A DNA stretch of 46,726 nucleotides from Actinomycetes bacterium. Its GTDB lineage: Bacteria; Actinomycetota; Thermoleophilia; UBA2241. Positions 106-37,501 of this stretch are shown here, piece by piece. The position numbers were made by a program, and so were the translations under genes. The stretch is from the NCBI GenBank assembly GCA_037131205.1, contig JBAXRL010000001.1:1-46726 (forward strand), in the 5' to 3' direction. Position 1 is the stretch's first letter. Each line of letters begins with the position of its first letter. The notes under the pieces are model-generated. The model ran no database searches and was not told where the DNA came from. It saw nothing but the letters and a program-made list of their open reading frames with translations.

Positions 106-1209
106 TCACCTTGACCCCCCGCACGCCCGCCTCACCTCCTCCGGCGCGGCGGACGCATTGTCGAGCCTTGGCGGCGTGAGCACCGGCTGGTGGTCCTCTT
201 CGAGGATCCGGCGCCCGTCGTCACCCAGCAGGAAGGCGGCGAGCTCGCCGGCCAGCCCCGGCTCCGGCGCGTTGGCCGGGATCGTGAACGCATAGCGGAT
301 GACGTCGCCGCGGAACACGGGCTTCACGCTGGCGAAACGGCGGAAGTCGAGCTTCACCTCGACGCGCCGGTAGTCGGCGCGACGGCCGGCCTCACCGAGA
401 TCGATCGAGGACGGCAGCCGCACGTACTCCAGGCCGTGCTGCCGCGCGACGCTCTCGTACTCGAAGGCGCAGTCCAGATCGCCCGACTCGAGCAGGGCGA
501 CCAGCTGGATGCTCGCGCCGCGAAGGACGAGGTTGCCGCCCGATTGCGTCTCAAGGATCTCGGGGACCTCGATGACGTCGACGCCTCCGGCGTTGCGCGT
601 GACGGTGACCGGCGTCGTGAAGCGACCCATCATCATGTCCTCGAAGAGGTACGGGTCGTCGTACTCGCGTTCCGCGAGCTGCAGCAGCATGAGGGCGCGG
701 TAGCCGGCGGCGTCGAAACGCGGGTCGGCCAGCCCGAAGCGGACGTCCGGCTGCGTGAGACGTCGGTACCACGTGCGCGCGTCGAGCTCCCCGGCCAGCG
801 GGCTCTTCGGCGAGATCGCCAGCACCATGCGATTGGTGGCGAAGGTGCAATACCAGGACGCGTACGGCTCTCCAGTCTCGTGGTCCACGCGGTCGTACAT
901 GAGCGGCGGGATGAGCTGCTCGTCGGCGCTGACCGCCAGATCGAAGCGGTCGCCGAGCTCGGTGACGTGGCGCAGCACCTGGATGCTGCCGTGGCTCTCG
1001 GTGAGCACGTCCACGTCCGGATGACTGCGCTCGAACTCCGCCGCCAACTGCTCGAACGGCACGATGAGGCTGCCGGCGTACATGAGCTTGACCTGGCGCT
1101 TGTCGCTGCCGCAGCCGACGATGACAAGGCCCAGCGCCACGAGAAGTACGGCCGCGGCCAGGGCCGCGGCCGTACTGGGCCTCGCACGCGTGTGGATGCT
1201 GCTCAGCAC
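106..1209 (-). CDS. wtpA: WtpA-like tungstate/molybdate ABC transporter substrate-binding lipoprotein
   Basis: 367 aa with GTG start. Lipobox LVIVGCGS. The stretch KLMYAGSLIVPFEQLAAEFERSHPDVDV..GSIQVLRHVTELGDRFDLAVSAD..DPRFDAAGYRALMLLQLAE matches my recollection of archaeal/bacterial WtpA (type I PBP oxyanion binders). It is the last visible gene of the riboswitch-led operon. Confidence 0.75.
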   Translation of the reverse strand: MLSSIHTRARPSTAAALAAAVLLVALGLVIVGCGSDKRQVKLMYAGSLIVPFEQLAAEFERSHPDVDVLTESHGSIQVLRHVTELGDRFDLAVSADEQLIPPLMYDRVDHETGEPYASWYCTFATNRMVLAISPKSPLAGELDARTWYRRLTQPDVRFGLADPRFDAAGYRALMLLQLAEREYDDPYLFEDMMMGRFTTPVTVTRNAGGVDVIEVPEILETQSGGNLVLRGASIQLVALLESGDLDCAFEYESVARQHGLEYVRLPSSIDLGEAGRRADYRRVEVKLDFRRFASVKPVFRGDVIRYAFTIPANAPEPGLAGELAAFLLGDDGRRILEEDHQPVLTPPRLDNASAAPEEVRRACGGSR

Positions 1210-1220
1210 AATCGCGTGGC

Positions 1221-2249
1221 CTACTTCACGCGCACTACGATGCGCGCGATGCCGCCCGGCATCTGCGCTTCACTCAGGCCCGGGCCCGCGAGGCGCAGCG
1301 GAAAGAGCTCCTCCGGGAGCTCGCCACCGTCGAGCTTGCCCGCGAGGACGACGTCCTGCTTGCCGGCGATGTCGCGCGAGTCGATGGTCACGACCTCGCC
1401 GGTCGCGGTCTCGATGACGATGTCGTAGCCCTTGCGAGCGAGCGCCGCGTCGTAGGCTCCGGCACCGTGGCGTTTCTTGTCGTCGATCATCCCGGCCACG
1501 AGATACAGCGGGATGCCCTCCCAGCGCTTGCCGGCGGCGTCGACCCAGCCGGAGCCGTGACACCCCGGCGAGGCGCAGTTCACGTAGGTCGGCTTGTCGA
1601 GCTTGCCGGGTACAGCGCCCTCGAGCTGGACCTTCCACTCAGCCGAAGCCTTGGTCACGGAGATGCGCTCGACCCACTTGACCGACCAGTGCCCGTCCAC
1701 GACCTGCCCTCCCGGCGCGGGAGTGCCGACCATCAATCGCAGGGGACCCTCATCCTCACCGAGAGGCTTGCCCTCGCGGGCGTAGGCGATGATCACGGTG
1801 AGGTCCTTCGACGGCGTCTGCTCGCCGCCGGTCGCCGGATCGTAGGCGGTGAACGAGTGGTCGACGATCTGAGCGTAGGAGAAGGTCATGCCGTAGCCGT
1901 CCTTGGCCACGAGAGTGACACCGTTGGCCCTGGTGATGCCGCCGACCAGGTCCGTGAGGTCGCTGAGGCGCACGCCGGTGTACTCGGCGGGCAGCGTGAT
2001 GACGCCGGTGCTGCTCTTGATGCCGGCGTAGCCGGTGTACGCCGGCAGAGCCTTGAGCTGGTTCAGGGTGAACTGCTTCTCGCCCTCTTCGCCGACGAGG
2101 GTGAGGACGACCGACCCGGAGGGGCTGACGGCCGGGGAGGCCTGGTCTGTTGCCTGTGAGCCCGACGAACCTCCGCACGCTGCTAGAAGCGCGACCAGGC
2201 CCACGACCATCACGACGCCGGCCAGCGCCAGCGCGGCGATGCGGTTCAC
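1221..2249 (-). CDS. lipoprotein with two tandem SUOX-fold (Oxidored_molyb-like) domains
   Basis: 342 aa. SD GAGGAGG lies upstream of the ATG. Lipobox LLAACGG. N-domain signature: GKPLGEDEGPLRLMVGTP...HWSVKWVERISV. C-domain signatures: WKVQLEG, CASPGCHGSGW...WEGIPLYL, FPLRLAGPG. Paralog of 2281..3327. Confidence 0.8.
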   Translation of the reverse strand: MNRIAALALAGVVMVVGLVALLAACGGSSGSQATDQASPAVSPSGSVVLTLVGEEGEKQFTLNQLKALPAYTGYAGIKSSTGVITLPAEYTGVRLSDLTDLVGGITRANGVTLVAKDGYGMTFSYAQIVDHSFTAYDPATGGEQTPSKDLTVIIAYAREGKPLGEDEGPLRLMVGTPAPGGQVVDGHWSVKWVERISVTKASAEWKVQLEGAVPGKLDKPTYVNCASPGCHGSGWVDAAGKRWEGIPLYLVAGMIDDKKRHGAGAYDAALARKGYDIVIETATGEVVTIDSRDIAGKQDVVLAGKLDGGELPEELFPLRLAGPGLSEAQMPGGIARIVVRVK

Positions 2250-2280: not shown

Positions 2281-3327
2281 TCATTTCGGCAGCATCTGGA
2301 TCTTGACGATCTGCCCGACGAAGCTCTTGCCGCCGATCTTGGGACCGACCAGCCGCAGGGGGTAGTAGTCCGCCGTCAGCTCGGACCCCTGCAGCTTGTT
2401 GGCCAGGATGATCTGTTCCTGGTTGCGGATGGTGCGCGAGCCGATGATGGCGGTGGCGCCGGTGGCGGACGTCAGCTTGATGCGGTAGCCCTTGAGCGCC
2501 AGTGCCTCGTTGTAGGCGCCATAGCCGCCGTGACCTTTGCCGCCGTCGATCTTGCCGATGCAGAGGAAGAGCGGGACTCCGGACCACGTCTTCTCCGTCG
2601 CAGTGTCGGTCCACGCCGACCCGTGACATCCGGGCGTGGCACACGAGTCGTACGAGAGGCGGTCGAGCGTGTAGGTCTGGCGCTTGCCCTTCTTGTCCTT
2701 GAGGCCGTACATCTTGACGGTCCACGGGACGACGGCGTTGCGCAGGCTGACGCGATCCACCCACTTGACGAAGAGGTGCCCGGCCGCCACCTGGTTCTCA
2801 TCGGTAGGCTGACAGACGGCGAGACGCAGCGGCCCGTCGCCGGTCGGGCCGGGCGCGATCGCCGCGCCGTGCTCTTCGTAGAGGAGGACGACCGACACCG
2901 GGGCCTTGGCGACTTCCTCCTGCTTGGTGGTGGCGTTGTACATGGGGATGTTGCCGTTGACGACCTCGTCGTAGGTGAGCGTCATCCCGTAGTCGTCGCT
3001 GGCCGTGATGTCCGTCGACTGGAACTCGGGGACGCCCCCGACCTCCTCGAGGAGAGCGGTGAGCTTCACGCCTTTGACGGCGACCGGCGGCGTGACGGTG
3101 CCGGCGCTGTTGATGATGCCGGAATAGCCGGAGTAGGCGGGCAGTGCCTGGAGCTCGGCCATGGTGAACGTCTTCGTGGCACCGTTGCCGACGATGGTCA
3201 GCACGACCGGGTCGGCGGCAGCCGCCTGCGGCGTGCCGCCGGGTACGACGGACCCGGCCAGCACGACGGCGCCCAGCGCCACGAGCACGACGACCACGGC
3301 TCCAATCCAGATCCTTCGCACGTTCAT
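2281..3327 (-). CDS. secreted protein with two tandem SUOX-fold (Oxidored_molyb-like) domains, paralog of 1221..2249
   Basis: The track ORF 2281..3381 was trimmed to the ATG at 3327 (MNVRRIWIGAVVVVLVALG...), which is preceded by SD GAGGGAG. Shares GDGPLRLAV...LFVKWVDRVSL, WTVKMYG, CATPGCHGSAW...WSGVPLFL and YPLRLVGPK with its neighbour. Confidence 0.8.
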   Translation of the reverse strand: MNVRRIWIGAVVVVLVALGAVVLAGSVVPGGTPQAAAADPVVLTIVGNGATKTFTMAELQALPAYSGYSGIINSAGTVTPPVAVKGVKLTALLEEVGGVPEFQSTDITASDDYGMTLTYDEVVNGNIPMYNATTKQEEVAKAPVSVVLLYEEHGAAIAPGPTGDGPLRLAVCQPTDENQVAAGHLFVKWVDRVSLRNAVVPWTVKMYGLKDKKGKRQTYTLDRLSYDSCATPGCHGSAWTDTATEKTWSGVPLFLCIGKIDGGKGHGGYGAYNEALALKGYRIKLTSATGATAIIGSRTIRNQEQIILANKLQGSELTADYYPLRLVGPKIGGKSFVGQIVKIQMLPK

Positions 3328-3456: not shown

Positions 3457-3912
3457 TCAGAAGATGAGCCGAATCCTGGTTACTCCGCGGGCCGACAGCT
3501 TGTTGTTGAACGGCTGCGTGATCGGAGGGCCGCCGACCAAGCGGAACGGCGCTTCCTCGCCCTCCAGCAGCTTGCCGTCCTTGATCTTGGCGACGATCCA
3601 CCGCTTCTTGCCGATGATCCACTTGCTCGGCAGCTTGGGCTTGTAGCCGTCGCGGCAGAAGAACTGGATCCGGTACCCCTTCTTGGCCAGCGCAACGTTG
3701 AACGAGCTGGGATCCTTGTCGTCCACCAACCCGACCAGCTTGTACAGTGTCTGACCCTTGTAGACGTAGCGCAGCGTCGGGTTGATGTTGCCGGCCTTGT
3801 TGCCGTACCAGGCCACGGTCGCCGGAACCTTACCGATGGGCAGCACCTTCTTGCGCTTGCCCTGTAGCGTCAGCGTCCAGCCTCTCCTGCTCGCGGCACG
3901 GGTCTGGTCAAA
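3457..3912 (-). CDS. third SUOX-like repeat domain lying in the +1 frame relative to 3908..5032 (frameshifted or recoded continuation, or a pseudogene fragment)
   Basis: The frame is open from 3939 down to 3457. The domain begins GWTLTLQGKRKK upstream of the only in-frame start (GTG 3846). That start has no SD and no signal peptide. The +1 frame joins at the C5T4 run and the TTT TGA C site (3913..3907). Confidence 0.55.
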   Translation of the reverse strand, partial: FDQTRAASRRGWTLTLQGKRKKVLPIGKVPATVAWYGNKAGNINPTLRYVYKGQTLYKLVGLVDDKDPSSFNVALAKKGYRIQFFCRDGYKPKLPSKWIIGKKRWIVAKIKDGKLLEGEEAPFRLVGGPPITQPFNNKLSARGVTRIRLIF

Positions 3913-5032
3913 AGGGGGCCGCGCCCGCCGGCGACGACTTCACGATACCGATGCGCACGATCCCTCGAGTCTGAGTGTCTGGGGCGACGGCGGGGACGTT
4001 GCTGACCACCCTGAGCGGCCAATCCGGCACCCACTGCGGCACTCCGCTGCTGTCGACGAACGGCTTGGGCACGGGGAGCGGCTGGCCGTTGCCCAGGCTT
4101 GCGACGATCATCTGCTTGCCGAGCTGAGCGATGTCGGCACTCGCGAACGTCTCGTAAAAGCCGTCCATGCCGAGGATGGTGACGAAGTAGCCCTTCTTGG
4201 CCAGCTTCGCATTGAACGTGCTGCGGTTCTTGTCGTCGAAGTAGCCGACGATCGTCTTGAGGGAAACGCCCGAGTAGGTCACCGTGGACGTGGGGACGGT
4301 GCTGTCGGTGATCGTCACCGTCCTGTTCGCCTTGGCGGCCCAGGCGGCCCACTGCGACGACGTCATGTCGGCGCCGTACTTGGTCGTCACGGTGTTGCGC
4401 AGCTGCAGGTCCCAGCCGTAGGGCTCGGCGGCGGCGGCCGGCGCCACGGCCGGCACGATGCTGAGGCGCACGATTCCGCCGGGCTTCATCTTGCCGGTGA
4501 CGCTGGGGTCGAGGCTGACGATCTTGAGCGGCCAGCTTGGCTTCCAGATGGGCAGGCCGTTCTTGTCGAGCGAGGCCTTGGGAACGGTGAGCGCCTGACC
4601 GCCCGCGAGGTTCGCGACGATGACCTTGTCGCCGAGGCTCGCGACGTCGGCGCTGGCGAACGTCGCGGCGAACCCGTCCATGCCGAGAACGACGACCTTG
4701 TAGCCGCCCGCGGCCAGTTCATCGTTAAACGTGCTGGGGTCGTTGTCGTCGAAGTAGCCGACCAGGGTCTTGAGGGCGACGCCCTTGTAGATCACCGTGT
4801 CGGTGGGAACGCTGCTGTCCGTGATGGTCACCTGGCGGTCCGCCTTCGCGACCCAGGCGGCGAAGGCCTTGTAGGTCAAATCGGCGCCGTACTTGGTCGT
4901 CACGGTGTTGCGCAGCTGCAGGTTCCAGCCGTAGGGCTCGGCGGCGGCGCCTCGCATCGCCAAAGCCGGCGCCGCCAGCGCGAGCATGAGGACCGCCACT
5001 GCCGCAGCGGTCAAGGTCAGCTTCCTGATCAT
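3908..5032 (-). CDS. secreted protein with two tandem cysteine-less SUOX-like repeat domains (171-aa period)
   Basis: The track ORF 3908..5233 was trimmed to the ATG at 5032 (MIRKLTLTAAAVAVLMLALAAPALA, a signal peptide) with SD GGAGGAG 7 nt upstream. Each repeat runs PYGW(N/D)LQLRNTVTTKYGAD...Y.GV.LKT.VGYFDD...WPL(K/R)(I/V)VS. Confidence 0.8.
   Translation of the reverse strand: MIRKLTLTAAAVAVLMLALAAPALAMRGAAAEPYGWNLQLRNTVTTKYGADLTYKAFAAWVAKADRQVTITDSSVPTDTVIYKGVALKTLVGYFDDNDPSTFNDELAAGGYKVVVLGMDGFAATFASADVASLGDKVIVANLAGGQALTVPKASLDKNGLPIWKPSWPLKIVSLDPSVTGKMKPGGIVRLSIVPAVAPAAAAEPYGWDLQLRNTVTTKYGADMTSSQWAAWAAKANRTVTITDSTVPTSTVTYSGVSLKTIVGYFDDKNRSTFNAKLAKKGYFVTILGMDGFYETFASADIAQLGKQMIVASLGNGQPLPVPKPFVDSSGVPQWVPDWPLRVVSNVPAVAPDTQTRGIVRIGIVKSSPAGAAPF
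4368..4948 (-). repeat. intragenic tandem duplication with a 513-nt period
   Basis: The 68-nt segments 4368..4435 and 4881..4948 differ at a single base (tcggcgccgtacttggtcgtcacggtgttgcgcagctgcagg[t/c]cccagccgtagggctcggcggcggc). The offset is exactly 513 nt, i.e. 171 codons. Confidence 0.9.
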
Positions 5033-5164
5033 GGTCCCACTCCTCCCCGGGGTTACTGTACGTGCAGCTCCGAGGGAGGGTAGGAGAGAGCCGTGTCCGC
5101 GGGCGGCGAGGCGCAATCGAGGCGCCGAAGGAGCCTCGTCACGCCGACACCGCGTGGGAGGCCA

Positions 5165-5315
5165 CGAAAAGGGGCCCATCCGCACGCGGAAAGGCCCGGC
5201 AAGGCGCGCTCTCCTTTCCGCACTGGGAGACACGGCGGTTTCCCGCTGTACCCTTCCGGCTTCGGCTCCGTAGGCTCCACACGCCCTTAGGAATCCGAGA
5301 CTCGGAGAAGCCGCC
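5165..5315 (-). promoter_or_regulatory. Moco (molybdenum/tungsten cofactor) riboswitch-like leader with a possible terminator/antiterminator platform
   Basis: Minus-strand RNA is CUUCUCCGAGUCUCGG..GUGGAGCCUACGGAGCC..ACAGCGGGAAACCGCCGUGUCUCCCAGUGCGGAAAGGAGAG. It contains the CUCCGAG, GGAGC, GAAA-capped stem, GUCUCCC and GAAAGGAG blocks I associate with the Moco RNA motif. The P1 candidate is UCUCC/GGAGA. Downstream, CGGAAAGG can alternatively pair with CCUUUCCG. A GC hairpin plus CUUUUC lies at 5165..5200. Confidence 0.65.
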
Positions 5316-5565
5316 GCAGTCTATACGCGCGCGCCCCGCGGCACAAGGTCGCCGCGTCCGACCTGAGGCCGCGCCGTCTGGACATGTTGGCCTGTGCCGT
5401 CGTGTTCCAGCATGGAGCGCATGCTCTTGAGCTGTGCATCGCAGCCTGGGCGAGGAGATGCAGACGCGCCCTCAGGGGTGCGCGCCGGCCGCGCGTCGCC
5501 ATCCAACACCCTGTGTGCCCCCGCCCCGGCATCTGATGTGGCGCATGGGTGGATCCTGGCGCCGC

Positions 5566-5595
5566 TTGACCCGCCCCAGAAGCTTCGGCTACTGT
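5566..5595 (+). promoter_or_regulatory. sigma70-like promoter for the tupA leader
   Basis: TTGACC (5566..5571), an 18-nt spacer, then TACTGT (5590..5595). This places the predicted start about 6 nt before the 5' arm of the riboswitch-like element. Confidence 0.45.
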
Positions 5596-5597
5596 AT

Positions 5598-5712
5598 CGG
5601 CTCTCTTCGAGCGCTGGAGTCCTGCCGGCAGGCGCCCTGCCTATGGAGCTTGCGCCGGCAGGGGACAGCGCGAAACCGCCGTGTCTCTCATGGTGGCCAG
5701 AAGAGATGCTCG
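5598..5712 (+). promoter_or_regulatory. second, diverged Moco-like riboswitch candidate
   Basis: RNA is GGCUCUCUUCGAGCGCUGGAG..CCUAUGGAGCUUGCGCC..ACAGCGCGAAACCGCCGUGUCUCUCAUGG..CCAGAAGAGA. It has a perfect 7-bp closing stem, UCUCUUC/GAAGAGA. A 26-nt core at 5665..5690 differs at only 2 bases from the minus-strand element (plus-strand coordinates 5225..5250). Confidence 0.55.
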
Positions 5713-5837
5713 AGCGAGCTTCGTGCGCTTGTGGAGGGCTCGCTTGTCCGACCCGGCGCGACCCGCGCCTCCCGCCACCGGTATCCGGCTTCCGACGCAC
5801 TCGAAGCAGGTCCGTGAAGCGACATCAGGGAGGTACG

Positions 5838-6785
5838 ATGTTCGGCAGTACGACTGAGATGCTCGTGAGACGCAGCCTGCTCGTGCTCGCCCTCGTGGCG
5901 CTCGCCGTCGCCGCGCTGGTCGGGGCCGGCTTCGCCGGCGGCAGCGGCCACGCCGCCGGGAAGTCCGCGCCCAACAACGCCAGGCTCGTCGTCTACTGCG
6001 CGACCAGCGTGCACGACTCCGGCCTCATGCAGGACGTCGTGCTGCCCGCCTACAACACCGCCCACCCCGGCATCACCGTGAACCCCACCTACGTGGGCTC
6101 CGGTGAGGCCATCCAGGCGGCCCGCGACGGGCTCGCCGACGTCATCATCGTGTGCTCGCCCCCCGACGAGAAGCAGCTTCTGACCGACGGCGTCGCCACC
6201 CTGCGCCTCCCGTTCGCCTACAACTACTTCACCATCGTCGGACCCAAGGGCGACCCGGCCAAGGTCGCCAGGGCCAGGTCGGCCGCCGACGCCTTCAAGC
6301 GCATCGCCGCCTACGGCGCCAGGTTGGCCGCCGGGAAGGTCGCCTTCGTGTCTCGCGGCGATGCCTCCGGCACCAACAAGAAGGAGCTGCAGCTCTGGTA
6401 CGCAGCCGACGTGACCACGTCCGCCGCCACGGCGCCGACCGGGGCCTGGTACATCACAGCCGCCGGCGGCCAGCTGCCTTGTCTTCAGGTCACGGCCGAG
6501 AAAGGCGCCTACACGCTCACCGACACCGCCACCTGGCTGAAGAACCAGAGCACCCTCGCGCCGCTCGTCAAGACCCTGACCAGGAAGGAAGACCTCATGA
6601 ATCAGTACTCCGTGCTGCTCCTGAACCAGATCATGCACGACCAGGTCGCCGCCACCGGCGCCGAGTGGCTGGCCGCCTGGCTCGTGAGCTACGAGGGCCA
6701 GCGGGCCATCGGCGCCTACGGCAGGTCCACGTACGGCCAGCCGCTCTTCGTCCCCAACGCGTCCACCATCTCGGCCCAGCTCTGA
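5838..6785 (+). CDS. tupA: TupA-like tungstate-binding periplasmic protein (orphan substrate-binding protein)
   Basis: The track ORF 5394..6785 was trimmed to the ATG at 5838, preceded by SD GGGAGG. It has a signal peptide. The motifs VYCATSVHDSGL, VGSGEAIQAARDG.ADV, YNYFTIVGPKGDPA and FVSRGDASGTNKKELQLW match the TupA/PBP_like_2 pattern. Confidence 0.7.
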   Translation: MFGSTTEMLVRRSLLVLALVALAVAALVGAGFAGGSGHAAGKSAPNNARLVVYCATSVHDSGLMQDVVLPAYNTAHPGITVNPTYVGSGEAIQAARDGLADVIIVCSPPDEKQLLTDGVATLRLPFAYNYFTIVGPKGDPAKVARARSAADAFKRIAAYGARLAAGKVAFVSRGDASGTNKKELQLWYAADVTTSAATAPTGAWYITAAGGQLPCLQVTAEKGAYTLTDTATWLKNQSTLAPLVKTLTRKEDLMNQYSVLLLNQIMHDQVAATGAEWLAAWLVSYEGQRAIGAYGRSTYGQPLFVPNASTISAQL

Positions 6786-8902: not shown

Positions 8903-10978
8903 TCACGACGATCCCCCGACCCACCGACCGAGGGCCATCAGGGGGAAGACCATGCGGTACAGGTGGTAGTTGATGTACAGGTCGCCGGGGAAACCGGTGG
9001 CGGTGAAGGAGGGCTCGTCCCAGGCGCCGTCGGCGCGCTGGGTCTCGACCAGGAAGCGGATCCCGCGCGCGGCGGCCTCCCCCCGGTCTCCGGCGGCCAC
9101 GAACGCGAGCAAGGCCCAGGCCGTCTGCGACGGCGTCGACTCGCCGCGACCTCGCCAGCTGGCGTCCCGGTACGAGCGCGGATCCTCACCCCAGCCGCCG
9201 TCGGCGTTCTGGTGGTCGGCGAGCCAGGCGAGCGCCCTCACGATCGGGGGCGCCTGCGGCGGCACGCCCGCTTTCACGAGCGCGGGCACGACGGCGCCCG
9301 TGCCGTACACGTGGTTCGCTCCCCAGCGTCCGTACCAGGAGCCGTCGTCCTCCTGCGCGCGCAGCAGCCATTGCAGCCCCCGGTTCATCACCTCGCGGTG
9401 CGCGCAGGGGGCCTCGGCGAGCATCTCCACGACGTGCGCGGTCACGTCGGCGCTGGGGGGGTCGATGACCGCCCCGAAGTCGCAGAAGGGCAGCGCCGTG
9501 CACAGCTTGCGCGTGTTGTCGGCGTCGAAAGCCGCCCAGCCACCGTCGCGGCTGCGCATGCCCACCACCCACTCCACGCCTCTGCGGACCGCCGCCTGCA
9601 CGCGCTCGAGGTCAGGGCCGACCGGCCCCTGTTCGGCGCCCGCGCCGGCCGCCGTACCGCCGCTGTCCGGCCCGACCAGGCGGCGCAGGGACATCGCCAC
9701 GATGGCGGTGTCGTCGATGTCGGGGTAGATGTCGTTGGCGAACTCAAAGGCCCAGCCGCCCGGACGCAGGTGCGGTCGGCGGACCGCCCAGTCGCCTGTG
9801 GTCGTGATCTCTTCCCGCAGGATCCACCGCCCAGCCCGCACGAGCGCGGGGTGGTCGGCGGCGAGCCCCGTGTCGGTCAGCGCCAGGATGCTGAGAGCCG
9901 TGTCCCACACCGGGGATTGGCAGGCCTCCAGCCAACGCATCCCGTCCTTCTCGACCATAAAGCCGTCGAGGCCGCGGATGCCGGCCGCCATGACCGGATG
10001 GTCGTTCGCGTAGCCCTCCAGGTGCAGGGCCAGGAGGGAGTACACCCAGGGAGGCTGGATACCGCCCCAGCAACCGTCGGCCTCCTGGCGCGCGAGCACC
10101 CACAGGACCGCGCGGTCCAGGGCGAGGCGCCGGAGCGGCTTCAGGGGAAGCTTCTCCAGGCGCCGCAGCGTCGCGTCGAGGAGGGTGAGGCAACCGGAGG
10201 CGGAGCGGAGGCGGAGCGGGGGCTTCACCGGGCGCTGCGTGCGCAGCTCGTCGATCCCGAACGATACGCCGCGCACGGGGCGATGGTGCGCCACGATCGA
10301 CAGGGCCACGATGGTCGGGCGCGCCCAGGAGGCGAAGTCGTACGGGTTGAGAGGGAACCAGGATGGGAGCAGGTTGATCTCGGCGGGGATCGCCGGAGTC
10401 CTGTCCCAAGGCCAGAGGCCGACGAGGGCCAGCCAGATGTGGGTGAAGACCCGGGCCTTCTCGACGCCGCCCGAGCCGCGGACCAGCGCGGCGGCGCGGA
10501 GCATGTGCTCTGCCGTGGAGGGGTCGCCCGCGAGGCGCAGAGCGACGTACGCCTCGACGCTCGTCGAAAGGTCGGGGGGGCCTTCGAAGTAAGTGGCCCA
10601 GCTGCCGTCCTCGCGCTGCTTCGAGCGGATCCAGGCGGCCGAGCGCGCGGTCTCGTCGTCGCGGCGGATACCGATGAATTCCCGGAAGAGCAGGTCCTCG
10701 GCGTCCATGGTGACGTTGGTCTCGAGATCGCCTTTCCACCAGCCGGCGGGGTCCTGGAGCGCCAGCAGCGCGTCGCGGCCGCGGGCGGCGGCCTGGCGCG
10801 CCTGGTCACGGAGCTCGGCGGCGGCCGGCCCGGTGGCGCCGGTGGAGGGCGGTTCGCCCCCGCTGGGGGATGACGGCCTAGTCACGCCGCCCCACAAACC
10901 TCGCCAGATCCGCCAGAGCGTCGCGCGCCGGGTCGACGAGCGCCCGCGGCCGTTCGAGGATCGGGGGTGGCCCCTCAT
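8903..10978 (-). CDS. shc: squalene-hopene cyclase
   Basis: 691-aa ORF with GWWKGDLETNVTMDAEDLLFREF, the DxDDTA motif (PDIDDTAIVAM) and repeated QW-type motifs (DGGW/DGSW). The start is uncertain: the ATG at 10978 gives an Arg-rich N-terminus, and the GTG at 10885 is an alternative. Confidence 0.9.
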   Translation of the reverse strand: MRGHPRSSNGRGRSSTRRATLWRIWRGLWGGVTRPSSPSGGEPPSTGATGPAAAELRDQARQAAARGRDALLALQDPAGWWKGDLETNVTMDAEDLLFREFIGIRRDDETARSAAWIRSKQREDGSWATYFEGPPDLSTSVEAYVALRLAGDPSTAEHMLRAAALVRGSGGVEKARVFTHIWLALVGLWPWDRTPAIPAEINLLPSWFPLNPYDFASWARPTIVALSIVAHHRPVRGVSFGIDELRTQRPVKPPLRLRSASGCLTLLDATLRRLEKLPLKPLRRLALDRAVLWVLARQEADGCWGGIQPPWVYSLLALHLEGYANDHPVMAAGIRGLDGFMVEKDGMRWLEACQSPVWDTALSILALTDTGLAADHPALVRAGRWILREEITTTGDWAVRRPHLRPGGWAFEFANDIYPDIDDTAIVAMSLRRLVGPDSGGTAAGAGAEQGPVGPDLERVQAAVRRGVEWVVGMRSRDGGWAAFDADNTRKLCTALPFCDFGAVIDPPSADVTAHVVEMLAEAPCAHREVMNRGLQWLLRAQEDDGSWYGRWGANHVYGTGAVVPALVKAGVPPQAPPIVRALAWLADHQNADGGWGEDPRSYRDASWRGRGESTPSQTAWALLAFVAAGDRGEAAARGIRFLVETQRADGAWDEPSFTATGFPGDLYINYHLYRMVFPLMALGRWVGGSS

Positions 10979-11016
10979 GCCGGTTCATGGTCGCCTCCAG
11001 GGGCGTCGCCCTTGTG

Positions 11017-12351
11017 TCATTCCGTCAGCGCCTCCGCCGCCGCTCCGCCGCTGCGGACAGCGCTCTCCATTGTGGCGGGCCAACCCGTGTCTGTCCACGC
11101 CCCGGCGAGGAAGACCCCGGGGATGGGCGATCGGCTCCCCACCCGGTGAGCGTCGCTGCCGGGCGCCGCGCGGAACGTGGCCCGGGGGCTGCGCGTGACA
11201 TGGGCCTCGAGGAGCTCCGCTTCCCTCGCCGCCGGGAACAGCCGTTGCAGGTCGCGCGCGACCCGGGCCACCAGCGGCGCGCTCGCGAGGCGCACGCAGT
11301 CGTCGGCCGCCGACAGCGACACCACGAGATACCGGCCCGGCTCCGACCCCACCATGGCCGAACGGTCGAACACCCACTGCGCCGTCGTTCCCAGACAGGC
11401 GGCCACGGCGAAGGGCATGGCCGGACGGTCGTAGTACAGGTGCAGGTTCACGATCGGCGAGACGCCAAGGTGGCGCAGGCTGTCGGCGAGCTCCTCCGGG
11501 GCGGCCGGCAACAATCCGGCGAGCCGATAGTGGGGCACGGCGAGAATCGCGGCGCCGGCCTCGAGTGCGGCGCCGTCCTCGAGCAGCAGGCGGACCGGAC
11601 CGCCACTCCGCCCGTCGACCGCCGCCACGCCGCTCCGCGGCCGGACGACGACCCCCGCGGCGGCCAGCGCCTGGCCGGCCAGGTCGTTGTGCAGGCGCGA
11701 CAAGGGGACGGTCGCCCAGCCTATGTCCGCGGCCGCCGCATCGTGCAGCAGGCCCATCTGCAAGGTGCGAGCCGCCGCGAGCAACGAGGCCTCGGTGGCT
11801 CGAACGTTGAGCGTGGGGAGAGAGACGAGGTCCCAGAGGCGTTCGATGGCCTGGTCCGACTGCCGCTGCTCGCGCAGCCACGAGGCAAAGGTCCTCTCGT
11901 CCAGCGAGCGGTCGTCGCCGTCGAGGCGGCGCAAGGCCCACGCGGCCGCGCCCACGCGCAGCCGCTCAACGGCGGACAGGCGCCCGTAGCGGGCGACCGC
12001 CGCCGCCAGGTGCAGGGGGGCGGGCCAGGAGCCGCGCCGGATCCATGCCGGGGCCAGGCCCGGCCGCACGACCGGAATCTCGAGGCGTTCCTGCAGGTAA
12101 AGGCACTGCTGCCCTCCGATCCGTTCGACCAGCGAGCGATAGGCCGTGCAGCAGCGCAAGAAGACGTGCTGGCCGTTGTCCTGCCAGCGGCCCCGCCGCA
12201 GGACCGACGCTGCCGCTCCCCCCAGATGGGGCCGTTTCTCGAGGAGCACCACCCGGGCGCCGGCGGCGGCGGCGGACAGGGCCGCGGCGATGCCCGCGAG
12301 CCCGCCCCCGACGACCACCACATCGGGCGCCGCGGCGTCGGGCGCCCTCAT
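11017..12351 (-). CDS. hpnE: hydroxysqualene dehydroxylase (FAD-dependent amine-oxidase family)
   Basis: Start chosen at the ATG at 12351 (SD GGGGAG 6 nt upstream); the track start is 12414. Carries DVVVVGGGLAGIAAAL...LLEKRPHLGG...NGQHVFLRCCTAY. Positioned between hpnD and shc. Confidence 0.8.
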   Translation of the reverse strand: MRAPDAAAPDVVVVGGGLAGIAAALSAAAAGARVVLLEKRPHLGGAAASVLRRGRWQDNGQHVFLRCCTAYRSLVERIGGQQCLYLQERLEIPVVRPGLAPAWIRRGSWPAPLHLAAAVARYGRLSAVERLRVGAAAWALRRLDGDDRSLDERTFASWLREQRQSDQAIERLWDLVSLPTLNVRATEASLLAAARTLQMGLLHDAAAADIGWATVPLSRLHNDLAGQALAAAGVVVRPRSGVAAVDGRSGGPVRLLLEDGAALEAGAAILAVPHYRLAGLLPAAPEELADSLRHLGVSPIVNLHLYYDRPAMPFAVAACLGTTAQWVFDRSAMVGSEPGRYLVVSLSAADDCVRLASAPLVARVARDLQRLFPAAREAELLEAHVTRSPRATFRAAPGSDAHRVGSRSPIPGVFLAGAWTDTGWPATMESAVRSGGAAAEALTE

Positions 12352-12394
12352 GCGCGACTCCCCGGATCGCCGCGCCTGGGCTGCCGCCCGGCGA

Positions 12395-13255
12395 TCACGT
12401 GGGCAGGCCGACAAGCGCTCGAGACGCGAGCCGGGTCTTCTCCCATGCGGAGAGCGAGACGCGGCCCACGAGCGGCAGCTCGGGCTCGACCTCTATGCGC
12501 TCGAGCAAGCGGCGGTAGATGCCCGCCATGGTGGCGACGCACGCTCGGCTGCGGTAGTCGAGGAGGGGGAGCAGGGTGAGCCCCTGGTCGTACCAGGAGC
12601 GCGCGCGGCGCGCCTCGTACGACACCAGGAGGGCCAGCCTGTCGCGGTCGCCGGTCAGATCGTCGCGGCACCCGAAGCCCACGATGTCCTCGCGGGGGAT
12701 GTAGACCCGACCCATCTCCTCGCGGTCTTCCACGACGTCCCGCAGGATGTTGGTGATCTGCAGGGCGATCCCCAGGGCGTCGGCGAGCGGCGCCGCGACC
12801 GCCATGTCCCGCACCCCGAATATCGAAACCGACAGCCTGCCGATGCTGCCGGCGACGAGCCGGCAGTACCGCACGAGCTCGTCGCAAGTCTGGATGGTCG
12901 TGCGCGTGCAGTCCAGCTCGCAGCCGTCGATGAGCTCCTCGAAGGCGCCGAGCGGCAGCGGGTAGCGCGCGGCGACCGCGCGCAGAGCGCACAGCACCGG
13001 GTCGGGACGCGAAGCGCCGCCGCCGGTCGGTACGGACAGCGTCCTGACCTGCGCGCGGATGCGTTCCAGCTCCGCGAGCTTGGCCTGCGCAAGGAGCGCG
13101 CCGTCTCCGACGTCGTCGATCCGCCGGGCAAGGGCGTAGACGGCCGAGAGCGCCTGACGCTTCGGCCTCGACAGAAGGCGGATGCCGTAAGCGAAGTTCC
13201 TGGCCTGCCCCCGGGTGATCAGTTCGCAGTGCCTGAACGCTTCCTCGGTGTTCAT
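12395..13255 (-). CDS. hpnD: presqualene diphosphate synthase (squalene/phytoene synthase family)
   Basis: 286 aa from the ATG at 13255 (MNTEEAFRHCELITRGQARNFAYGIRLL...YALARRIDDVGD...NILRDVVEDREEMGRVYIP). The 635-aa track ORF is read-through into out-of-frame hpnC sequence. Confidence 0.85.
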   Translation of the reverse strand: MNTEEAFRHCELITRGQARNFAYGIRLLSRPKRQALSAVYALARRIDDVGDGALLAQAKLAELERIRAQVRTLSVPTGGGASRPDPVLCALRAVAARYPLPLGAFEELIDGCELDCTRTTIQTCDELVRYCRLVAGSIGRLSVSIFGVRDMAVAAPLADALGIALQITNILRDVVEDREEMGRVYIPREDIVGFGCRDDLTGDRDRLALLVSYEARRARSWYDQGLTLLPLLDYRSRACVATMAGIYRRLLERIEVEPELPLVGRVSLSAWEKTRLASRALVGLPT

Positions 13256-14157
13256 CCGGTCGCTCCCCCGGCTCTTTGTCCGCGTGCCTCCGCCACGATG
13301 CCGAGGGACCGCATGAGGATGTGGCGCCTGCTCGGCCGGGTCGGGTGTCGCGCCACATCGTAGCCCGCCGCCGCGATGGCGTCCAGAGCGGCCGATCCGC
13401 CGCCCGCGAACCCGGCGATGGCCAGCCTGAGCCGCCCCCGCAGCGACCCCGCCAGCGGCGCCCCGGCGGCCAGCAGGCCTCGCGCTCGTCCGACCTCGAA
13501 GGTCATGAGGCGCACGAAGCCCGGCGTGGTCGCGCCCCTCAAGATCTGCGCCTCCTCGACGCCGAAGCGGGCGAGATCCTCCCCGGGCAGGTAGATGCGG
13601 CCCCGCGCGGCGTCCTCCGCGACGTCCTGCCAGTGCTCCGCCAGCTGGAGCCCCGTGCACACGTCGTCGGACCACGCCGCCCTCGCGGGGGTGAACGTCC
13701 CCGTCGCCATGAGGACCAGGCGCCCCACCGGCTCCGCGGACAGGCGGCAGTACGCCCGCAGGTCGGCGAACGTGGCGTAGCGCTTGACGCGCTGGTCCAT
13801 GCGGTTGGCGGCGATGAGCGCCAGGAAGGGCTCCGCGGGCAGCCGGCATTCGCGGATCGTCGCGGAGAGCTCCGCGAGAATGGGATGGCGGGCGGCGCCG
13901 GCGAACGCCTGCTCCAGCTCCGACTGGAGCCGGTCGAGGTGCCGCGAGCGGTCCCCGGCGGCCTCGTCGCCGAGGTCGTCGGCGAGGCGCGCGAAGCCGT
14001 AGATCGCCAGAAGATGGCGGCGCGTCGCGCGGGGCAGGAACCACGACGCCACCGGGAAGTTCTCCCGCGCGGCCTTGCCCATGACGTCGGCGACGCTGAG
14101 TCCCCCAAGGGACGCATCGACCGCCGACTCTGAACCCGCGGAGTGTATCTGAGACAC
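13252..14157 (-). CDS. hpnC: hydroxysqualene synthase (squalene/phytoene synthase family)
   Basis: 301 aa with ENFPVASWFLPR...YGFARLADDLGDE...LQLAEHWQDVAEDAARGRIYLP. It has a 4-nt ATGA overlap with the hpnD start. Confidence 0.85.
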   Translation of the reverse strand: MSQIHSAGSESAVDASLGGLSVADVMGKAARENFPVASWFLPRATRRHLLAIYGFARLADDLGDEAAGDRSRHLDRLQSELEQAFAGAARHPILAELSATIRECRLPAEPFLALIAANRMDQRVKRYATFADLRAYCRLSAEPVGRLVLMATGTFTPARAAWSDDVCTGLQLAEHWQDVAEDAARGRIYLPGEDLARFGVEEAQILRGATTPGFVRLMTFEVGRARGLLAAGAPLAGSLRGRLRLAIAGFAGGGSAALDAIAAAGYDVARHPTRPSRRHILMRSLGIVAEARGQRAGGATG

Positions 14158-34347: not shown

Positions 34348-36156
34348 TCACGCTCCTTCTGATTCGGTTGGCGCACACAGAGCGCCGGACAGGGCGGCCG
34401 GCTGAGCCCCTCCGCCGGCGATGAGCTCGAGCAAAGCTTCGGCCGCCGCGCGGGGGCCGGCGCTCTCGGCGCCGGGCAGCCCCAGCTGCGTGCGTAGCTG
34501 CCCGACGTACACGCCGGCCGCGTAGGCGGCGGCGAACGTCTTGCGCGCCAGGGCTTCGTGCTGCTCCGGGCGCTGCGCCGGCCCAAACGGGTTGGCGAAG
34601 TAGCTGTGCGTGAGCCCTGTCGACGTCGTGGTGCCTTTGGACATGGCGGCGCCGCCCGAGAAGACGGCCAGCGCCCCCTCTTGCTCGGGCAGCCGTTCGA
34701 GCACGGGATGCTCTTCGTCGACCGCCTCGTAGTTGTTGGCGTACAGCAGATAGTCCACCGGGTAGCCGCGCAGCACGTCTTCGAGCGACGTCACCGGCAG
34801 CACCACCCGCGCGTTCACGCGGTTGGGGCTCATGATGATGGCGCGGTCCATCTGCCCGAAGGCGTAGCCTTGCTGCAGGTCGTCGAGCCGCACGAACGCG
34901 CCGATCTCGGTGCCGTAGCCCAGCACGCGGCCGTCGGCGGCGACCTCGAGCGAACCCATGTCGTCGGCGATCACGCGCACCTCACGGATGCGCTCGTCGC
35001 CGACGATGCGCAGCGCCTCCAGGGTCTCCGACTTGCCGGTGGCCGTATCGCCGATGATGAGCACGCCGGCGGCGGCGCCGTCGGCCAGCACCAGCCGCGT
35101 GTAGGCGCCGTGGAACGGCATCAAGCCGCGGTCCATGGCGGCCACGTTGTGCAGCGTGAGCACCATCTTCTTGAGATAACCGAAGTAGCCGAAGCGGTCT
35201 TCGAGGGGGACGGCCGCGACGAGCAGACGACTCGCCCGGTCGTCGTGGAAGACGGTGGGCAGCTCGCCAAAACGGGCGAGCGCAGCCGGCGGGACGCCGT
35301 ACAGATACACGGCGTCGGGCCCGGCGGCGATTTCTTCGTCCGACGCCACCTCGAAGAGATTCGCGAGGCTCAGGCCCAGGCCGGCGAACCGCTGATGGAA
35401 GTAGACGAAGACGACGAGCCGGCCGACCAGCGCCGGGTAACAGAGCCACCGCTCGCGCTCGAGGCTGAGGCCGCCGAGCGGGTTGTCGGCGACCTCCGTG
35501 AACTGGCCGCTGCGCGTGTTGGTTGGCGGATCAAGCAGCAGGGGCGGGTACATGAGCAGGTTGCGCACGAACGGGATGCCGGCCAGCAGCTCGCGGTAGC
35601 GAGCCGGGGCCGGCCACTTCTGCGGCACGACGTAGACGCCCACCTCGGCGCCGGCCGCGACCTGGCGGTAGACGCGCGGCCGCCCACCGGTGACGTTCTC
35701 GGCGACATCGCGATAGAGGTCGCGGACCAGCCGCGCGAGAGTCTCCACGGTCTGGCTGAAGGCGCGCAGCGGCTGCTTGTCACCCGGCTGCGCCGCAGCG
35801 TCGGCGCGCACCACGAGGAAGCGGTCCCAGCGGCGCCAGAAGTCGTAGAGGCCCTCCACGAGCTCGTGCAGGCGCTCGCGTCCGGCGAGCAGGTCGCCGG
35901 GCCCGGCCCACGTGCGCGCCACGAGCTCGAGCGGGTTGTTGGCGAGCAGGCGGATGAGATCGAGGACCGCGGCTCTCTCGGGCAGCCCCAGCTCCGTGAG
36001 CGCCGCCGGGTTGTGGCGCTCGAGGTGGTCGACGCAGAGGTCGAGGACGCGCGCAAAGCCGGCGCTCTCCACGAGCTCCTGCGTGCTCGTGCACACGGCG
36101 CCCTCGGTGTGCATCACGACCTGGCGGTCGTCGATGTCGAGTCGCAGCAGGGACAT
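34348..36156 (-). CDS. uncharacterised 602-aa protein with an HprK/PEPCK-like P-loop domain in the C-terminal half
   Basis: ATG at 36156 with SD GGAGGA; the 770-aa track ORF carries a spurious N-terminal extension. The segment [29 protein letters not shown]...[22 protein letters not shown] resembles the HPr-kinase C-domain pattern. Confidence 0.65.
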
Positions 36157-36319
36157 AAATCCTCCGGAAACGTTCGCGGGCTCGCCGTCAGTCACGCCGG
36201 CGAGCCCGCAGACTACCACAGGCCGGTGCGCCTGTGACCCTGCTTGCGGATACCATGGTACCTCGGCCGTCCGCCGCGCCCCCACCGTGACGGAACCCGA
36301 CGAAAGGGCATATCCCACC

Positions 36320-37501
36320 ATGGACAAGAGGCAACGCAGGAGACTGCGGGACCTGCTCGCCAGGCTCGATACCGGCGAGCGCACCAGGCTCACAAAGCGC
36401 GCCGCCAAGCTGCGCCAGGCGGCGCTGCGCACGATGACCGGCGACGCGCGCCGCCCGGAGCTGGAGGACTTCCTTCTGAGGCTGCTGGACGAGCAGGAGA
36501 AAGCGGCCGCCGGCTTCGCGGCGGCCCCGAGCGCCGCCGCCGCCCCGCCGGCCGGGCTCGACGGCAGCCGCCGCGGCACCGTGATCGTGGTGACCGCCGG
36601 CGCCTGCGTCGTGCAGGCCGGCGACGACGTGCTTGACGCGGTGCTGCCCGCCGACCTCACGCGCCGTCAGCAGAGCGGCCTGGCGGTCGGCGACGAAGCG
36701 CTGCTGGAGCCGTTCGGCAAGGGTCACCGCGTGACCGCGGTGTTGCCCCGCCGCAGCCTGCTCACGCGCGCCGACCCGCACGATGCGCGACGCTCACGCG
36801 CGATCGCCGCCAACGTGGACATCGTTGTCGTCGTGGTGGCCGCGAAGGCGCCACCGCTGCACCCGCGGCTCATCGACCGCTACCTCGTGGCGGTCGAGCG
36901 CTCGGGCGCCCGGGCAACGCTCGCGATCAACAAGGTCGACCTGCTCGACGGCGACGAGCGGCGCGACGTGCTCGCACTTCTGCAGCCGTATCGGGAGCTC
37001 GGCTTTCCGGTGCTCGCCTGCAGCGCCGCCGACGGCGAGGGCATCGAGGAGCTGCGCAGCGTGCTCTCCGGCGCGACCTGCGTCTTCGTCGGCCAGAGCG
37101 GCGTGGGCAAGTCGTCGCTGCTCAACGCCCTGCACGCGACGGCCGCGGCAAAGACCGGCGCGGTCCGCGCCGGCGACGGCCGCGGCCGCCACACCACCTC
37201 GTCGTCGAGCCTGTACGAACTGCCCGGCGGCGTGCGCGTGATCGATACGCCGGGCATCCGCCGCTTCAGCGTCGACGACGCCGACGCGGTCACGCTCGCC
37301 GACGGTTTCACCGAGTTCGCGCCATACGCGGCGCGCTGCAGGTACCGCGACTGCGCACACACGCACGAACCCGGCTGCGCGGTCAAGGCCGCCGTCGATG
37401 ACGGCGCCATCGCGCGCCGCCGATACACGAGCTACCTCAAGCTGCTCGGCGGCGACGGCGACGACCCGCGACGCGGCGACGGCGCTCAGATCAGCGTTTG
37501 A
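36320..37501 (+). CDS. rsgA: ribosome small-subunit-dependent GTPase A with an N-terminal extension
   Basis: ATG at 36320, 393 aa. Circularly permuted GTPase motifs are present (LAINKVDLL; GQSGVGKSSLLNAL; DTPGIR). The C-terminal zinc site is CRYRDCAHTHEPGC. The first ~100 aa are Arg/Ala-rich. Confidence 0.85.
   Translation: MDKRQRRRLRDLLARLDTGERTRLTKRAAKLRQAALRTMTGDARRPELEDFLLRLLDEQEKAAAGFAAAPSAAAAPPAGLDGSRRGTVIVVTAGACVVQAGDDVLDAVLPADLTRRQQSGLAVGDEALLEPFGKGHRVTAVLPRRSLLTRADPHDARRSRAIAANVDIVVVVVAAKAPPLHPRLIDRYLVAVERSGARATLAINKVDLLDGDERRDVLALLQPYRELGFPVLACSAADGEGIEELRSVLSGATCVFVGQSGVGKSSLLNALHATAAAKTGAVRAGDGRGRHTTSSSSLYELPGGVRVIDTPGIRRFSVDDADAVTLADGFTEFAPYAARCRYRDCAHTHEPGCAVKAAVDDGAIARRRYTSYLKLLGGDGDDPRRGDGAQISV

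Follow-up and report, generated by a model that had tools for sequence, protein, structure and literature searches.

A P3-lacking Moco RNA in the leader of a wtpA operon encoding secreted SUOX/PruR-fold proteins in a Thermoleophilia actinobacterium

How does a Thermoleophilia bacterium control an operon in which the gene for a tungstate/molybdate-binding protein, wtpA, lies behind four genes for secreted proteins of the SUOX/PruR fold? The operon occupies the minus strand at one end of the DNA analysed here, positions 1 to 46,726 of contig JBAXRL010000001.1 (assembly GCA_037131205.1; this whole stretch of 46,726 nucleotides is called the window), and its first gene starts with the ATG at 5032. 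A first-pass annotation, made from the letters of the window, had placed a riboswitch-like element of the molybdenum cofactor (Moco) type in a leader of about 280 nt; measured from the start of the aptamer to the ATG, the leader is 287 nt long. The leader opens with a genuine member of the Moco RNA family, of the class that lacks the P3 helix. From the conserved alternative helices downstream of it and from constrained folding, we propose that the leader acts as a functional cofactor-sensing OFF switch by transcription termination, with the aptamer at the 5′ end of an mRNA starting at about position 5311, and we give this proposal a probability of roughly 0.75.

A Moco RNA of the P3-lacking class

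When the whole window was compared with Rfam, RF01055 (Moco RNA motif) was the one family to pass its gathering threshold. The match at 5319..5195 on the minus strand covers model positions 1-135 of 135 and scores 53.7 bits (E 3.5e-10), above the gathering score of 36 bits. It lies in the region of about 5209..5312 that the first-pass annotation had pointed to, and the family assignment made there is borne out; the actual match is longer at both ends, and its first ~8 nt are probably not transcribed. Every sequence block named in that annotation is found on the minus strand, in the order CUCCGAG (5307..5301), CCUACGGAGCC, GCGG-GAAA-CCGC, GUCUCCC and GGAAAGGAGAG (about 5219..5209), and the proposed UCUCC/GGAGA closing helix is seen as P1, in which UUCUCC (5309..5304) pairs with GGAGAG (5214..5209). 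The core of the aptamer is present in full (CUCCGAG, CCUAAG...UACGG, AGGG, GAAA, CUCCC and GGAAAGGAG). It carries both the GAAA tetraloop helix and the receptor-like CCUAAG...UACGG internal loop of P2, a tetraloop/receptor correlation described for Moco RNA by Regulski et al. 2008 (PMC2408646). The Rfam alignment has deletions in place of P3, and the end of P2 (…GAAGCC) is separated from the AGGG of the GAAA-capped helix only by GGA, which places the RNA in the P3-lacking class.

Is the aptamer maintained by selection in the relatives of this organism? The closest relatives of the 374-aa product of gene 1, with 89% and 78% identity, are encoded in two uncultured Thermoleophilia genome bins, and many metagenome contigs encode further ones. 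In 25 Thermoleophilia or metagenome loci, the same aptamer stands 160-200 nt upstream of the orthologous start codon on the same strand. RF01055 matches upstream of the ortholog were obtained in L001, L002, L003-5, L012, L015-17, L020, L025-27, L031, L036, L037 and L041-L046, and a lineage-specific covariance model built from these orthologous aptamers, R1, added L051, L052 and two copies cut by contig ends (L008 and L011). The window aptamer has the top R1 score of all, 133 bits, a value that is partly by construction, as the window copy is among the training sequences. P3 is absent from all of the 30-odd aptamers collected from the lineage.

The Rfam consensus structure was mapped onto a MAFFT alignment of 26 aptamers. 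Standard pairs fill 88.4% of the pair cells of the aptamer helices, as compared to 39-50% in slid controls, in which each 3′ partner is displaced by 1-3 columns. Twelve pairs have changed on both sides, including two in P1 and five in P2, and none of 500 shuffles matches the observed covariation score. The GAAA-capped helix is nearly invariant and hence uninformative on covariation. The outermost three Rfam P1 pairs form in just 46% of their cells, in agreement with a −10 promoter box that overlaps them. Plain minimum free energy folding of the aptamer, either by itself or together with the downstream helices, did not yield the Rfam fold, and constrained folds were used instead.

Where does the mRNA begin? 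The pattern CTTGYS-N17-TAsAMT is kept at the same position upstream of every orthologous aptamer, and its −10 hexamer reads TAGACT, TAGAAT, TACACT or TACAAT. Neither a promoter nor a terminator came out of a consensus scan over 4800..5900, whose thresholds (at least 5 T for a terminator and 9/12 matches for a promoter) are too strict for a genome of 70% GC; we therefore argue for both elements from conservation. The −10 hexamer overlaps the first ~8 nt of the Rfam match, so that these nucleotides are probably promoter DNA and not RNA. Transcription would then start at about 5312..5310, which leaves 1-3 nt ahead of the P1 5′ strand.

Decaying copies of the aptamer do exist in this lineage, one of them in the window itself (5595..5719) and others in L021, L022 and L038, and one may ask whether the match at 5319..5195 is likewise a non-functional relic, or even a chance resemblance. 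We regard this as very improbable. The window copy keeps every invariant nucleotide and heads the R1 ranking, with the reservation on that score given above; moreover, the aptamer and the downstream helices are conserved across proteins down to ~40% identity, and the Rfam E value is far from what chance would give.

Alternative helices, the operon and the proposed switch

Downstream of the aptamer, the segment CGGAAAGG, which belongs to the 3′ core and the P1 3′ strand, is complementary to CCUUUCCG. The first-pass annotation had noticed this helix as 8 bp; it is real, and the perfect pairing extends to 9 bp. When the downstream 65 nt were dinucleotide-shuffled 5000 times, a complement of at least 8 nt arose in 172 cases (3.4%). 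The competing GC hairpin, which the same annotation had described as followed by CUUUUC, spans 5197..5172, has a folding energy of −18.5 kcal/mol (z −3.2; none of 200 shuffles was as stable) and is followed by C-UUUU-CG, with the U-run at 5170..5167. The terminator/antiterminator logic is anatomically correct: the two helices are mutually exclusive, and the antiterminator shares nucleotides with the closing region of the aptamer. When the aptamer was enforced, the remaining transcript folded as the terminator hairpin, with a total of −64.6 kcal/mol, and when the antiterminator was enforced, the total was −67.0 kcal/mol. The two states are near iso-energetic, and ligand binding could therefore tip the balance between them.

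Both helices are kept in the relatives. In 19 leaders, the antiterminator pairs form in 98.6% of cells, as compared to 28-72% for the slid controls, and the terminator pairs form in 96.3%; taken over both helices, the slid controls range from 22 to 72%. RNAalifold recovered the antiterminator conformer from 16 full-length leaders. In addition, 4-6 consecutive U follow the hairpin in most orthologs, although their flanks differ. The mutually exclusive arrangement recognized in the first pass is upheld by these counts, which are a matter of conservation and not of covariation.

A third helix encloses the U-run. Its outer strands, CCGCGUG and CACGCGG, are joined by an inner GGGCC:GGCCU pairing, and it has an energy of −23.6 kcal/mol (z −3.5), with 90.8% of cells paired in the 19 leaders; one of its U-A pairs is C-G in two sequences and U-G in four. 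This helix can coexist with the antiterminator but not with the terminator, and it may lock the read-through conformer.

What does the leader control? The product of gene 5 matches TIGR03730 with 260.1 bits against a cut-off of 242.75, which supports its earlier identification as WtpA. The operon extends past the window edge. In relatives, a fixed seven-gene unit is completed by genes for an ABC permease (wtpB) and for an ATPase that has TOBE domains (wtpC). Beyond wtpBC, some relatives have tupABC, and others have moaA, moaC and an MoCF-biosynthesis gene together with a gene for a TOBE protein. As expected of a leader with a Moco motif, genes for molybdenum or tungsten transport lie downstream of it, wtpA in the window and wtpBC in the relatives. 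The description of the other products as SUOX-like repeat proteins is right at the level of the fold: genes 3 and 4 match PF00174, and the models of genes 1 and 4 find SUOX Moco-domain structures (sulfite oxidase, SoxC and YedY) in Foldseek. The Mo-ligand cysteine of that family is missing, as described below.

Together, these features suggest the following switch. With ample molybdopterin-type cofactor, probably in its tungsten form, the aptamer would fold and hold P1 (UUCUCC:GGAGAG) together with the GGAAAGG core. With the aptamer folded, CCUUUCCG would be free, the GC-rich hairpin at 5197..5172 would form ahead of the UUUU, and transcription would end short of the operon. Under cofactor scarcity, CGGAAAGG would instead pair with CCUUUCCG as the antiterminator, allowing the polymerase to read through, and the third helix would lock the terminator arm away. 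The operon would then be expressed, supplying the four secreted SUOX/PruR-fold proteins and WtpA, together with WtpBC encoded beyond the window edge.

This arrangement is not a new kind of element. The study by Regulski et al. 2008 (PMC2408646) reports intrinsic terminators after some Moco RNAs, and it places P3-lacking RNAs before putative genes for sulfite oxidase in Syntrophomonas wolfei and before a gene for a predicted transporter of molybdate in Pelobacter carbinolicus; the latter organism was assigned tungsten-cofactor (Tuco) metabolism because of a wtpA homologue. With these P3-lacking Tuco candidates the window RNA has in common the covariance model, the conserved core, the absence of P3, a putative intrinsic terminator like those after some of the copies, and the link to tungstate/molybdate transporters and, in S. 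wolfei, to putative genes of the sulfite-oxidase family. As compared to the candidates as described in the passages covered here (PMC2408646), the window RNA differs in its host, a Thermoleophilia actinobacterium; in its operon, a fixed set of seven genes, four of them for secreted SUOX/PruR-fold proteins without the Mo-ligand cysteine; and in its leader of ~280 nt, which has an extra conserved helix, a hairpin over the Shine-Dalgarno (SD) sequence and a pre-SD element. The Escherichia coli moaA Moco riboswitch belongs to the same family and has the OFF logic that we propose here, as well as a GGAG-rich P1 3′ strand. According to the same study (PMC2408646), however, P3 is present in the E. 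coli RNA, which controls translation through a ribosome-binding site in the P1 3′ strand and, by genetic evidence, responds to Moco and not to the tungsten form; in the window RNA, P3 is missing and the platform is of the terminator/antiterminator type.

Several observations weigh against the proposed switch. The terminator and antiterminator helices are invariant in the 19 leaders and show no covariation, and conservation of this kind may also reflect constraints other than RNA structure. The U-run of the window has only 4 U, below the minimum of the terminator scan, which reported no terminator. Two orthologous genes with enough upstream sequence, in L006 and L010, are not preceded by an aptamer. 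Finally, a strong hairpin that sequesters the SD sequence (GGGGAGGAG at 5048..5040) is predicted in both aptamer states, and control may therefore be partly or wholly translational. This hairpin has 13 bp and an energy of −28.2 kcal/mol (z −2.7), and an alignment of 16 leaders retains its pairs (columns 249-255 with 284-290).

The short U-run, the negative terminator scan and the SD hairpin speak for an alternative, namely that the aptamer is real while control is exerted by SD sequestration that the aptamer modulates, by Rho-dependent termination or by both, with the hairpin at 5197..5172 being merely structural. It also gains from the ~135 nt of conserved leader past that hairpin, including the pre-SD element complementary to the aptamer 5′ strand, from the paralogous tupA-type leaders, which have no U-run, and from a third copy in L002, which has its SD inside the P1 3′ strand. 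However, the U-run that directly follows the hairpin in most orthologs, despite variable flanks, is unfavourable to this alternative, and so is the modelled accessibility of the SD, which is ~0.1 unpaired whether the aptamer is closed or the antiterminator is formed, with no consistent difference. On balance we consider it unlikely, and transcription termination remains the mode of control that we favour.

As regards the ligand, Regulski et al. 2008 divided the motif into P3-containing and P3-lacking forms (the latter 58/176) and reported (PMC2408646) that the loss of P3 near-perfectly matches tungsten-cofactor metabolism, which is a correlation; in the E. coli RNA, deletion of P3 abolished regulation and did not switch specificity. 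The window encodes no tungsten enzyme, the rest of it consisting of housekeeping genes, and the only tungsten evidence here is the wtpA/tupA context. WtpA-type proteins bind both tungstate and molybdate. The ligand may instead be the molybdenum cofactor, both metal forms or a shared molybdopterin species, with the operon serving molybdate as much as tungstate. RF01055 covers both metal forms, and the moaA, moaC and MoCF-biosynthesis genes found after the operon in relatives are common to both cofactors. Against this, the whole collection of lineage aptamers lacks P3, and they stand ahead of wtpA- or tupA-type genes, the context of the P3-lacking RNAs reported by Regulski et al. (PMC2408646). 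We hold such a ligand to be a serious possibility, at somewhat less than even odds, and retain the tungsten form as the probable ligand of the proposed termination switch. The features of the locus are collected in Table 1.

Table 1. Positions of the RNA elements, promoter hexamers and genes of the locus in the window
Feature	Position	Strand	Basis or remark
Moco/tungsten-cofactor riboswitch aptamer, P3-lacking type	5195..5319	-	Rfam RF01055
CGGAAAGG, aptamer 3′ core and P1 3′ strand, antiterminator 5′ arm	5213..5220	-	complementarity, conservation
CCUUUCCG, antiterminator 3′ arm, terminator 5′ arm	5187..5194	-	antiterminator pair counts
Intrinsic-terminator-like hairpin GGGCCU.UCCG-CGUG-CGGA.GGGCCC + C + UUUU	5167..5197	-	folding, conservation
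Third helix, CCGCGUG (5189..5183) with CACGCGG (5156..5150)	5150..5189	-	encloses U-run
SD-sequestering hairpin, anti-SD UCCUACCCUCCCU (5085..5073) with GGGGAGG-A-GUGGGA (5048..5035)	5035..5085	-	folding
Conserved pre-SD element CUCGGAG	5068..5074	-	exact reverse complement of aptamer 5′ CUCCGAG (5307..5301)
-35-like hexamer TTGTGC	5341..5346	-	17 nt from -10; recurs in orthologous leaders
-10-like hexamer TAGACT	5318..5323	-	conserved directly upstream of orthologous aptamers
Gene 1, secreted protein of 374 aa, two SUOX/PruR-fold repeats, no cysteine	3908..5032	-	signal-peptide-like N-terminus, AlphaFold2, Foldseek
Gene 2, 129 aa	3457..3846	-	open reading frame; resembles C-terminal part of gene 1 repeat, by eye
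Gene 3, secreted protein of 348 aa, two SUOX-fold domains flanking invariant C-x4-C-H-G	2281..3327	-	Pfam Oxidored_molyb, 31 bits
Gene 4, 342 aa, lipoprotein-like paralog of gene 3	1221..2249	-	Pfam Oxidored_molyb (PF00174), 49 bits
Gene 5, WtpA, tungstate/molybdate ABC-transporter substrate-binding protein	106..1209	-	NCBIfam TIGR03730
Degenerate second Moco-type aptamer	5595..5719	+	RF01055 25.3 bits, below gathering score
Orphan tupA-like gene	5838..6785	+	120 nt downstream of sister aptamer

The distal leader and a possible long-range pairing

Does the distal part of the leader also take part in the switch? Its best-conserved block, CCUCGGAG, lies inside the SD hairpin and contains the heptamer CUCGGAG. 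RNAalifold, applied to the last 70 nt of the leaders, gave no convincing local partner for this block (−0.9 kcal/mol). A search of 700 nt downstream of the aptamer gave, in most leaders, a single exact complement of its CUCCGAG, at a constant distance from it. The paralogous tupA-type leaders have CUUCGAG in the aptamer and GAAGAG as the P1 3′ strand, and their element, 30 nt upstream of the ATG, reads CUCGAAG, UUCGAAG or GUCGAAG.

The 5′ and pre-SD segments of 29 leaders were concatenated and aligned by sequence only. A 9-bp long-range helix forms in 90.8% of the cells of this alignment, as compared to 32-50% for slid controls, and 18 sequences have C-G at the key pair whereas 8 have U-A. Inspection by eye added further cases: the variant elements CUCGGGG in L025 (with a U-G pair) and UUCGGAG in L052 (G-U) still pair; the tupA-type leader of L046 has a register-shifted helix of 8 bp, GCGCUCGA:UCGAGCGC; L043 has a helix of 10 bp that is shifted towards P1; and L001, in which the tupA-type aptamer has decayed, has a lesion in the element (CUCCAAG).

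The long-range helix also has its weaknesses. The main compensatory change is a single class-level event. The pre-SD element was not found in L002, in L042 or in the short leader of L047, a tupA-type leader that does have an aptamer; the further tupA-type leaders of L048 and L049 have no aptamer. With the SD ~90% paired in both modelled aptamer states, the translational leg gains no thermodynamic support, although the long-range helix would be a pseudoknot and thus beyond what the accessibility model represents. Duplex energies were compared with a background of 1500 random genomic windows. The fraction of windows at least as stable was mostly 0.005-0.09, with 0.087 for the window leader, and four leaders gave 0.19-0.78; as the energy is only marginal for each sequence, we do not claim the helix on energy. 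Overall, the pairing of CUCCGAG with CUCGGAG is a reasonable hypothesis that we put forward tentatively.

If the hypothesis holds, the leader may work in two stages. The first 11 nt of the mRNA, GCUUCUCCGAG, which comprise the P1 5′ strand and the conserved GAG of the junction J1/2, may pair with CUCGGAGnnGC (5074..5064), located ~230 nt away in the apical part of the SD-sequestering hairpin. Read-through transcripts might thereby be held in the aptamer-open form, or their translation might be tuned by the same ligand, or both. The joint picture, in which such a two-stage leader governs the operon as an undescribed module for the extracellular acquisition of tungsten, molybdenum or a pterin-type cofactor, is speculative, and we would not expect it to hold in all its parts.

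Operon proteins, sister aptamers and window context

Are the SUOX-fold proteins of the operon enzymes? The AlphaFold2 model of the gene 1 product (pLDDT 76) retrieved sulfite oxidase (E 7e-6) and PruR (7kos, TM 0.66) in Foldseek, and the protein has no Pfam match above the cut-off. The small gene 2 product has no Pfam match, and a gene for 119-157 aa is kept at this position in relatives. For the gene 4 model, Foldseek found PruR 7kom (TM 0.75, root-mean-square deviation 2.9 Å) as well as SoxC, sulfite oxidase, nitrate reductase and YedY. Between their two SUOX-fold domains, the products of genes 3 and 4 have the invariant motif C-x3-G-C-H-G, a haem-c-like CX4CH that occupies residues 225-232 in gene 4. 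The model has low confidence at this motif, which is what one expects of a loop that depends on a cofactor. In several relatives (L049-L052), the operon is followed, a few kb on, by ccmE and ccmF, two genes of cytochrome-c maturation.

The cysteine that coordinates molybdenum in SUOX enzymes was not found in either case: the gene 1 product has no cysteine at all, and the conserved cysteines of the gene 4 family are only the lipobox C25 and the C225 and C230 of the CX4CH motif. The window proteins should therefore not be filed as SUOX enzymes. The gene 4 family has more than 600 homologs above the search threshold, and in public annotation they are usually called 'molybdopterin-dependent oxidoreductase' or YedY-like, although the Mo-ligand cysteine is missing from them.

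Judged by sequence and models, the operon proteins appear more like PruR-type binding domains than sulfite-oxidase enzymes. Both PruR and the window proteins are small and secreted, and the window proteins have no Moco-ligand cysteine; we take PruR to lack it as well. PruR is a periplasmic pterin-binding, single-domain signalling partner of a c-di-GMP enzyme in Proteobacteria, and its structures (7kos, 7kom and 7rkb; PMC11194511) are the best single-domain matches to genes 1 and 4 (TM 0.66-0.75, root-mean-square deviation 2.9-4.6 Å). Unlike PruR, the window proteins have repeated domains (2+1+2+2), two of them have the invariant CX4CH motif, and their genes are predicted to be co-transcribed with wtpABC under a cofactor riboswitch.

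A second aptamer of the Moco type, with its own −35 and −10 hexamers, precedes the orphan tupA-like gene on the other strand. It has lesions at invariant positions (GGAAAG to GGCCAG and CUCCC to CUCUC), and its close relatives in L001 (5321..5446, minus strand), L003 (2321..2446, minus strand) and L004 (2321..2445, minus strand) have different lesions at other invariant positions. The genes tupB and tupC are absent from the window, L001, L003 and L004, and follow tupA where the aptamer is intact (L002, L027 and L045). This looks like relaxed selection after the loss of a transporter operon. Elsewhere, weak R1 matches of 31-32 bits lie upstream of single-domain homologs of gene 1 in L021 (1464..1583), L022 (2811..2930) and L038 (553..640), with the whole 3′ half missing in L038; these are probably degenerate or truncated riboswitch remnants.

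The same genomes have additional P3-lacking Moco RNAs in L002 (582..704, plus strand), L047 (8572..8690, minus strand), L046 (264..388, minus strand) and L051 (12545..12666, plus strand). One of these copies has a GTG start codon 8 nt past the GGAGG of the P1 3′ strand and stands ahead of a 382-aa protein without a Pfam match, another precedes a 347-aa protein that also has none, and another, which has an antiterminator-like CCUUUCC segment, precedes moaA. A Pfam search with the proteins behind the sister aptamers in L002 (703..1851), L047 (7435..8478) and L046 (571..1392) gave no match. The regulon apparently includes several uncharacterised proteins, which appear to be secreted when their N-terminal sequences are judged by eye.

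The operon is adjoined by a hopanoid/squalene cluster at 8903..14157 on the minus strand (squalene-hopene cyclase, an amine-oxidase-type FAD enzyme and squalene/phytoene synthase), which is followed by the rps6-ssb-rpl9-dnaB region. Taken with the 70% GC and the Thermoleophilia relatives, this context identifies the window as ordinary chromosome. At 34348..36660 on the minus strand, a 770-aa open reading frame with a strong coding signal (GC content at third codon positions 0.90) has no Pfam match at E <= 1e-5.

What does the locus mean for the family and the organism? The present results give a firm regulatory annotation for a Thermoleophilia operon, with an aptamer that any Rfam-based annotation would detect, and they do not overturn the current understanding of Moco RNAs; the most noteworthy parts are the gene set, which is unusual, and the long-range helix, if it forms. 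The ~30 clean P3-lacking aptamers, all linked to wtpA- or tupA-type genes, are usable material on the 2008 proposal that P3 loss goes with tungsten sensing, and the orphan tupA with its degenerate aptamer illustrates riboswitch decay in step with operon decay. Through guilt by association, the widespread and uncharacterised gene 4 family is tied to tungsten/molybdenum-cofactor homeostasis. Most likely, the riboswitch shuts off a tungstate/molybdate uptake operon, along with its secreted pterin-fold proteins, when the cofactor is plentiful.

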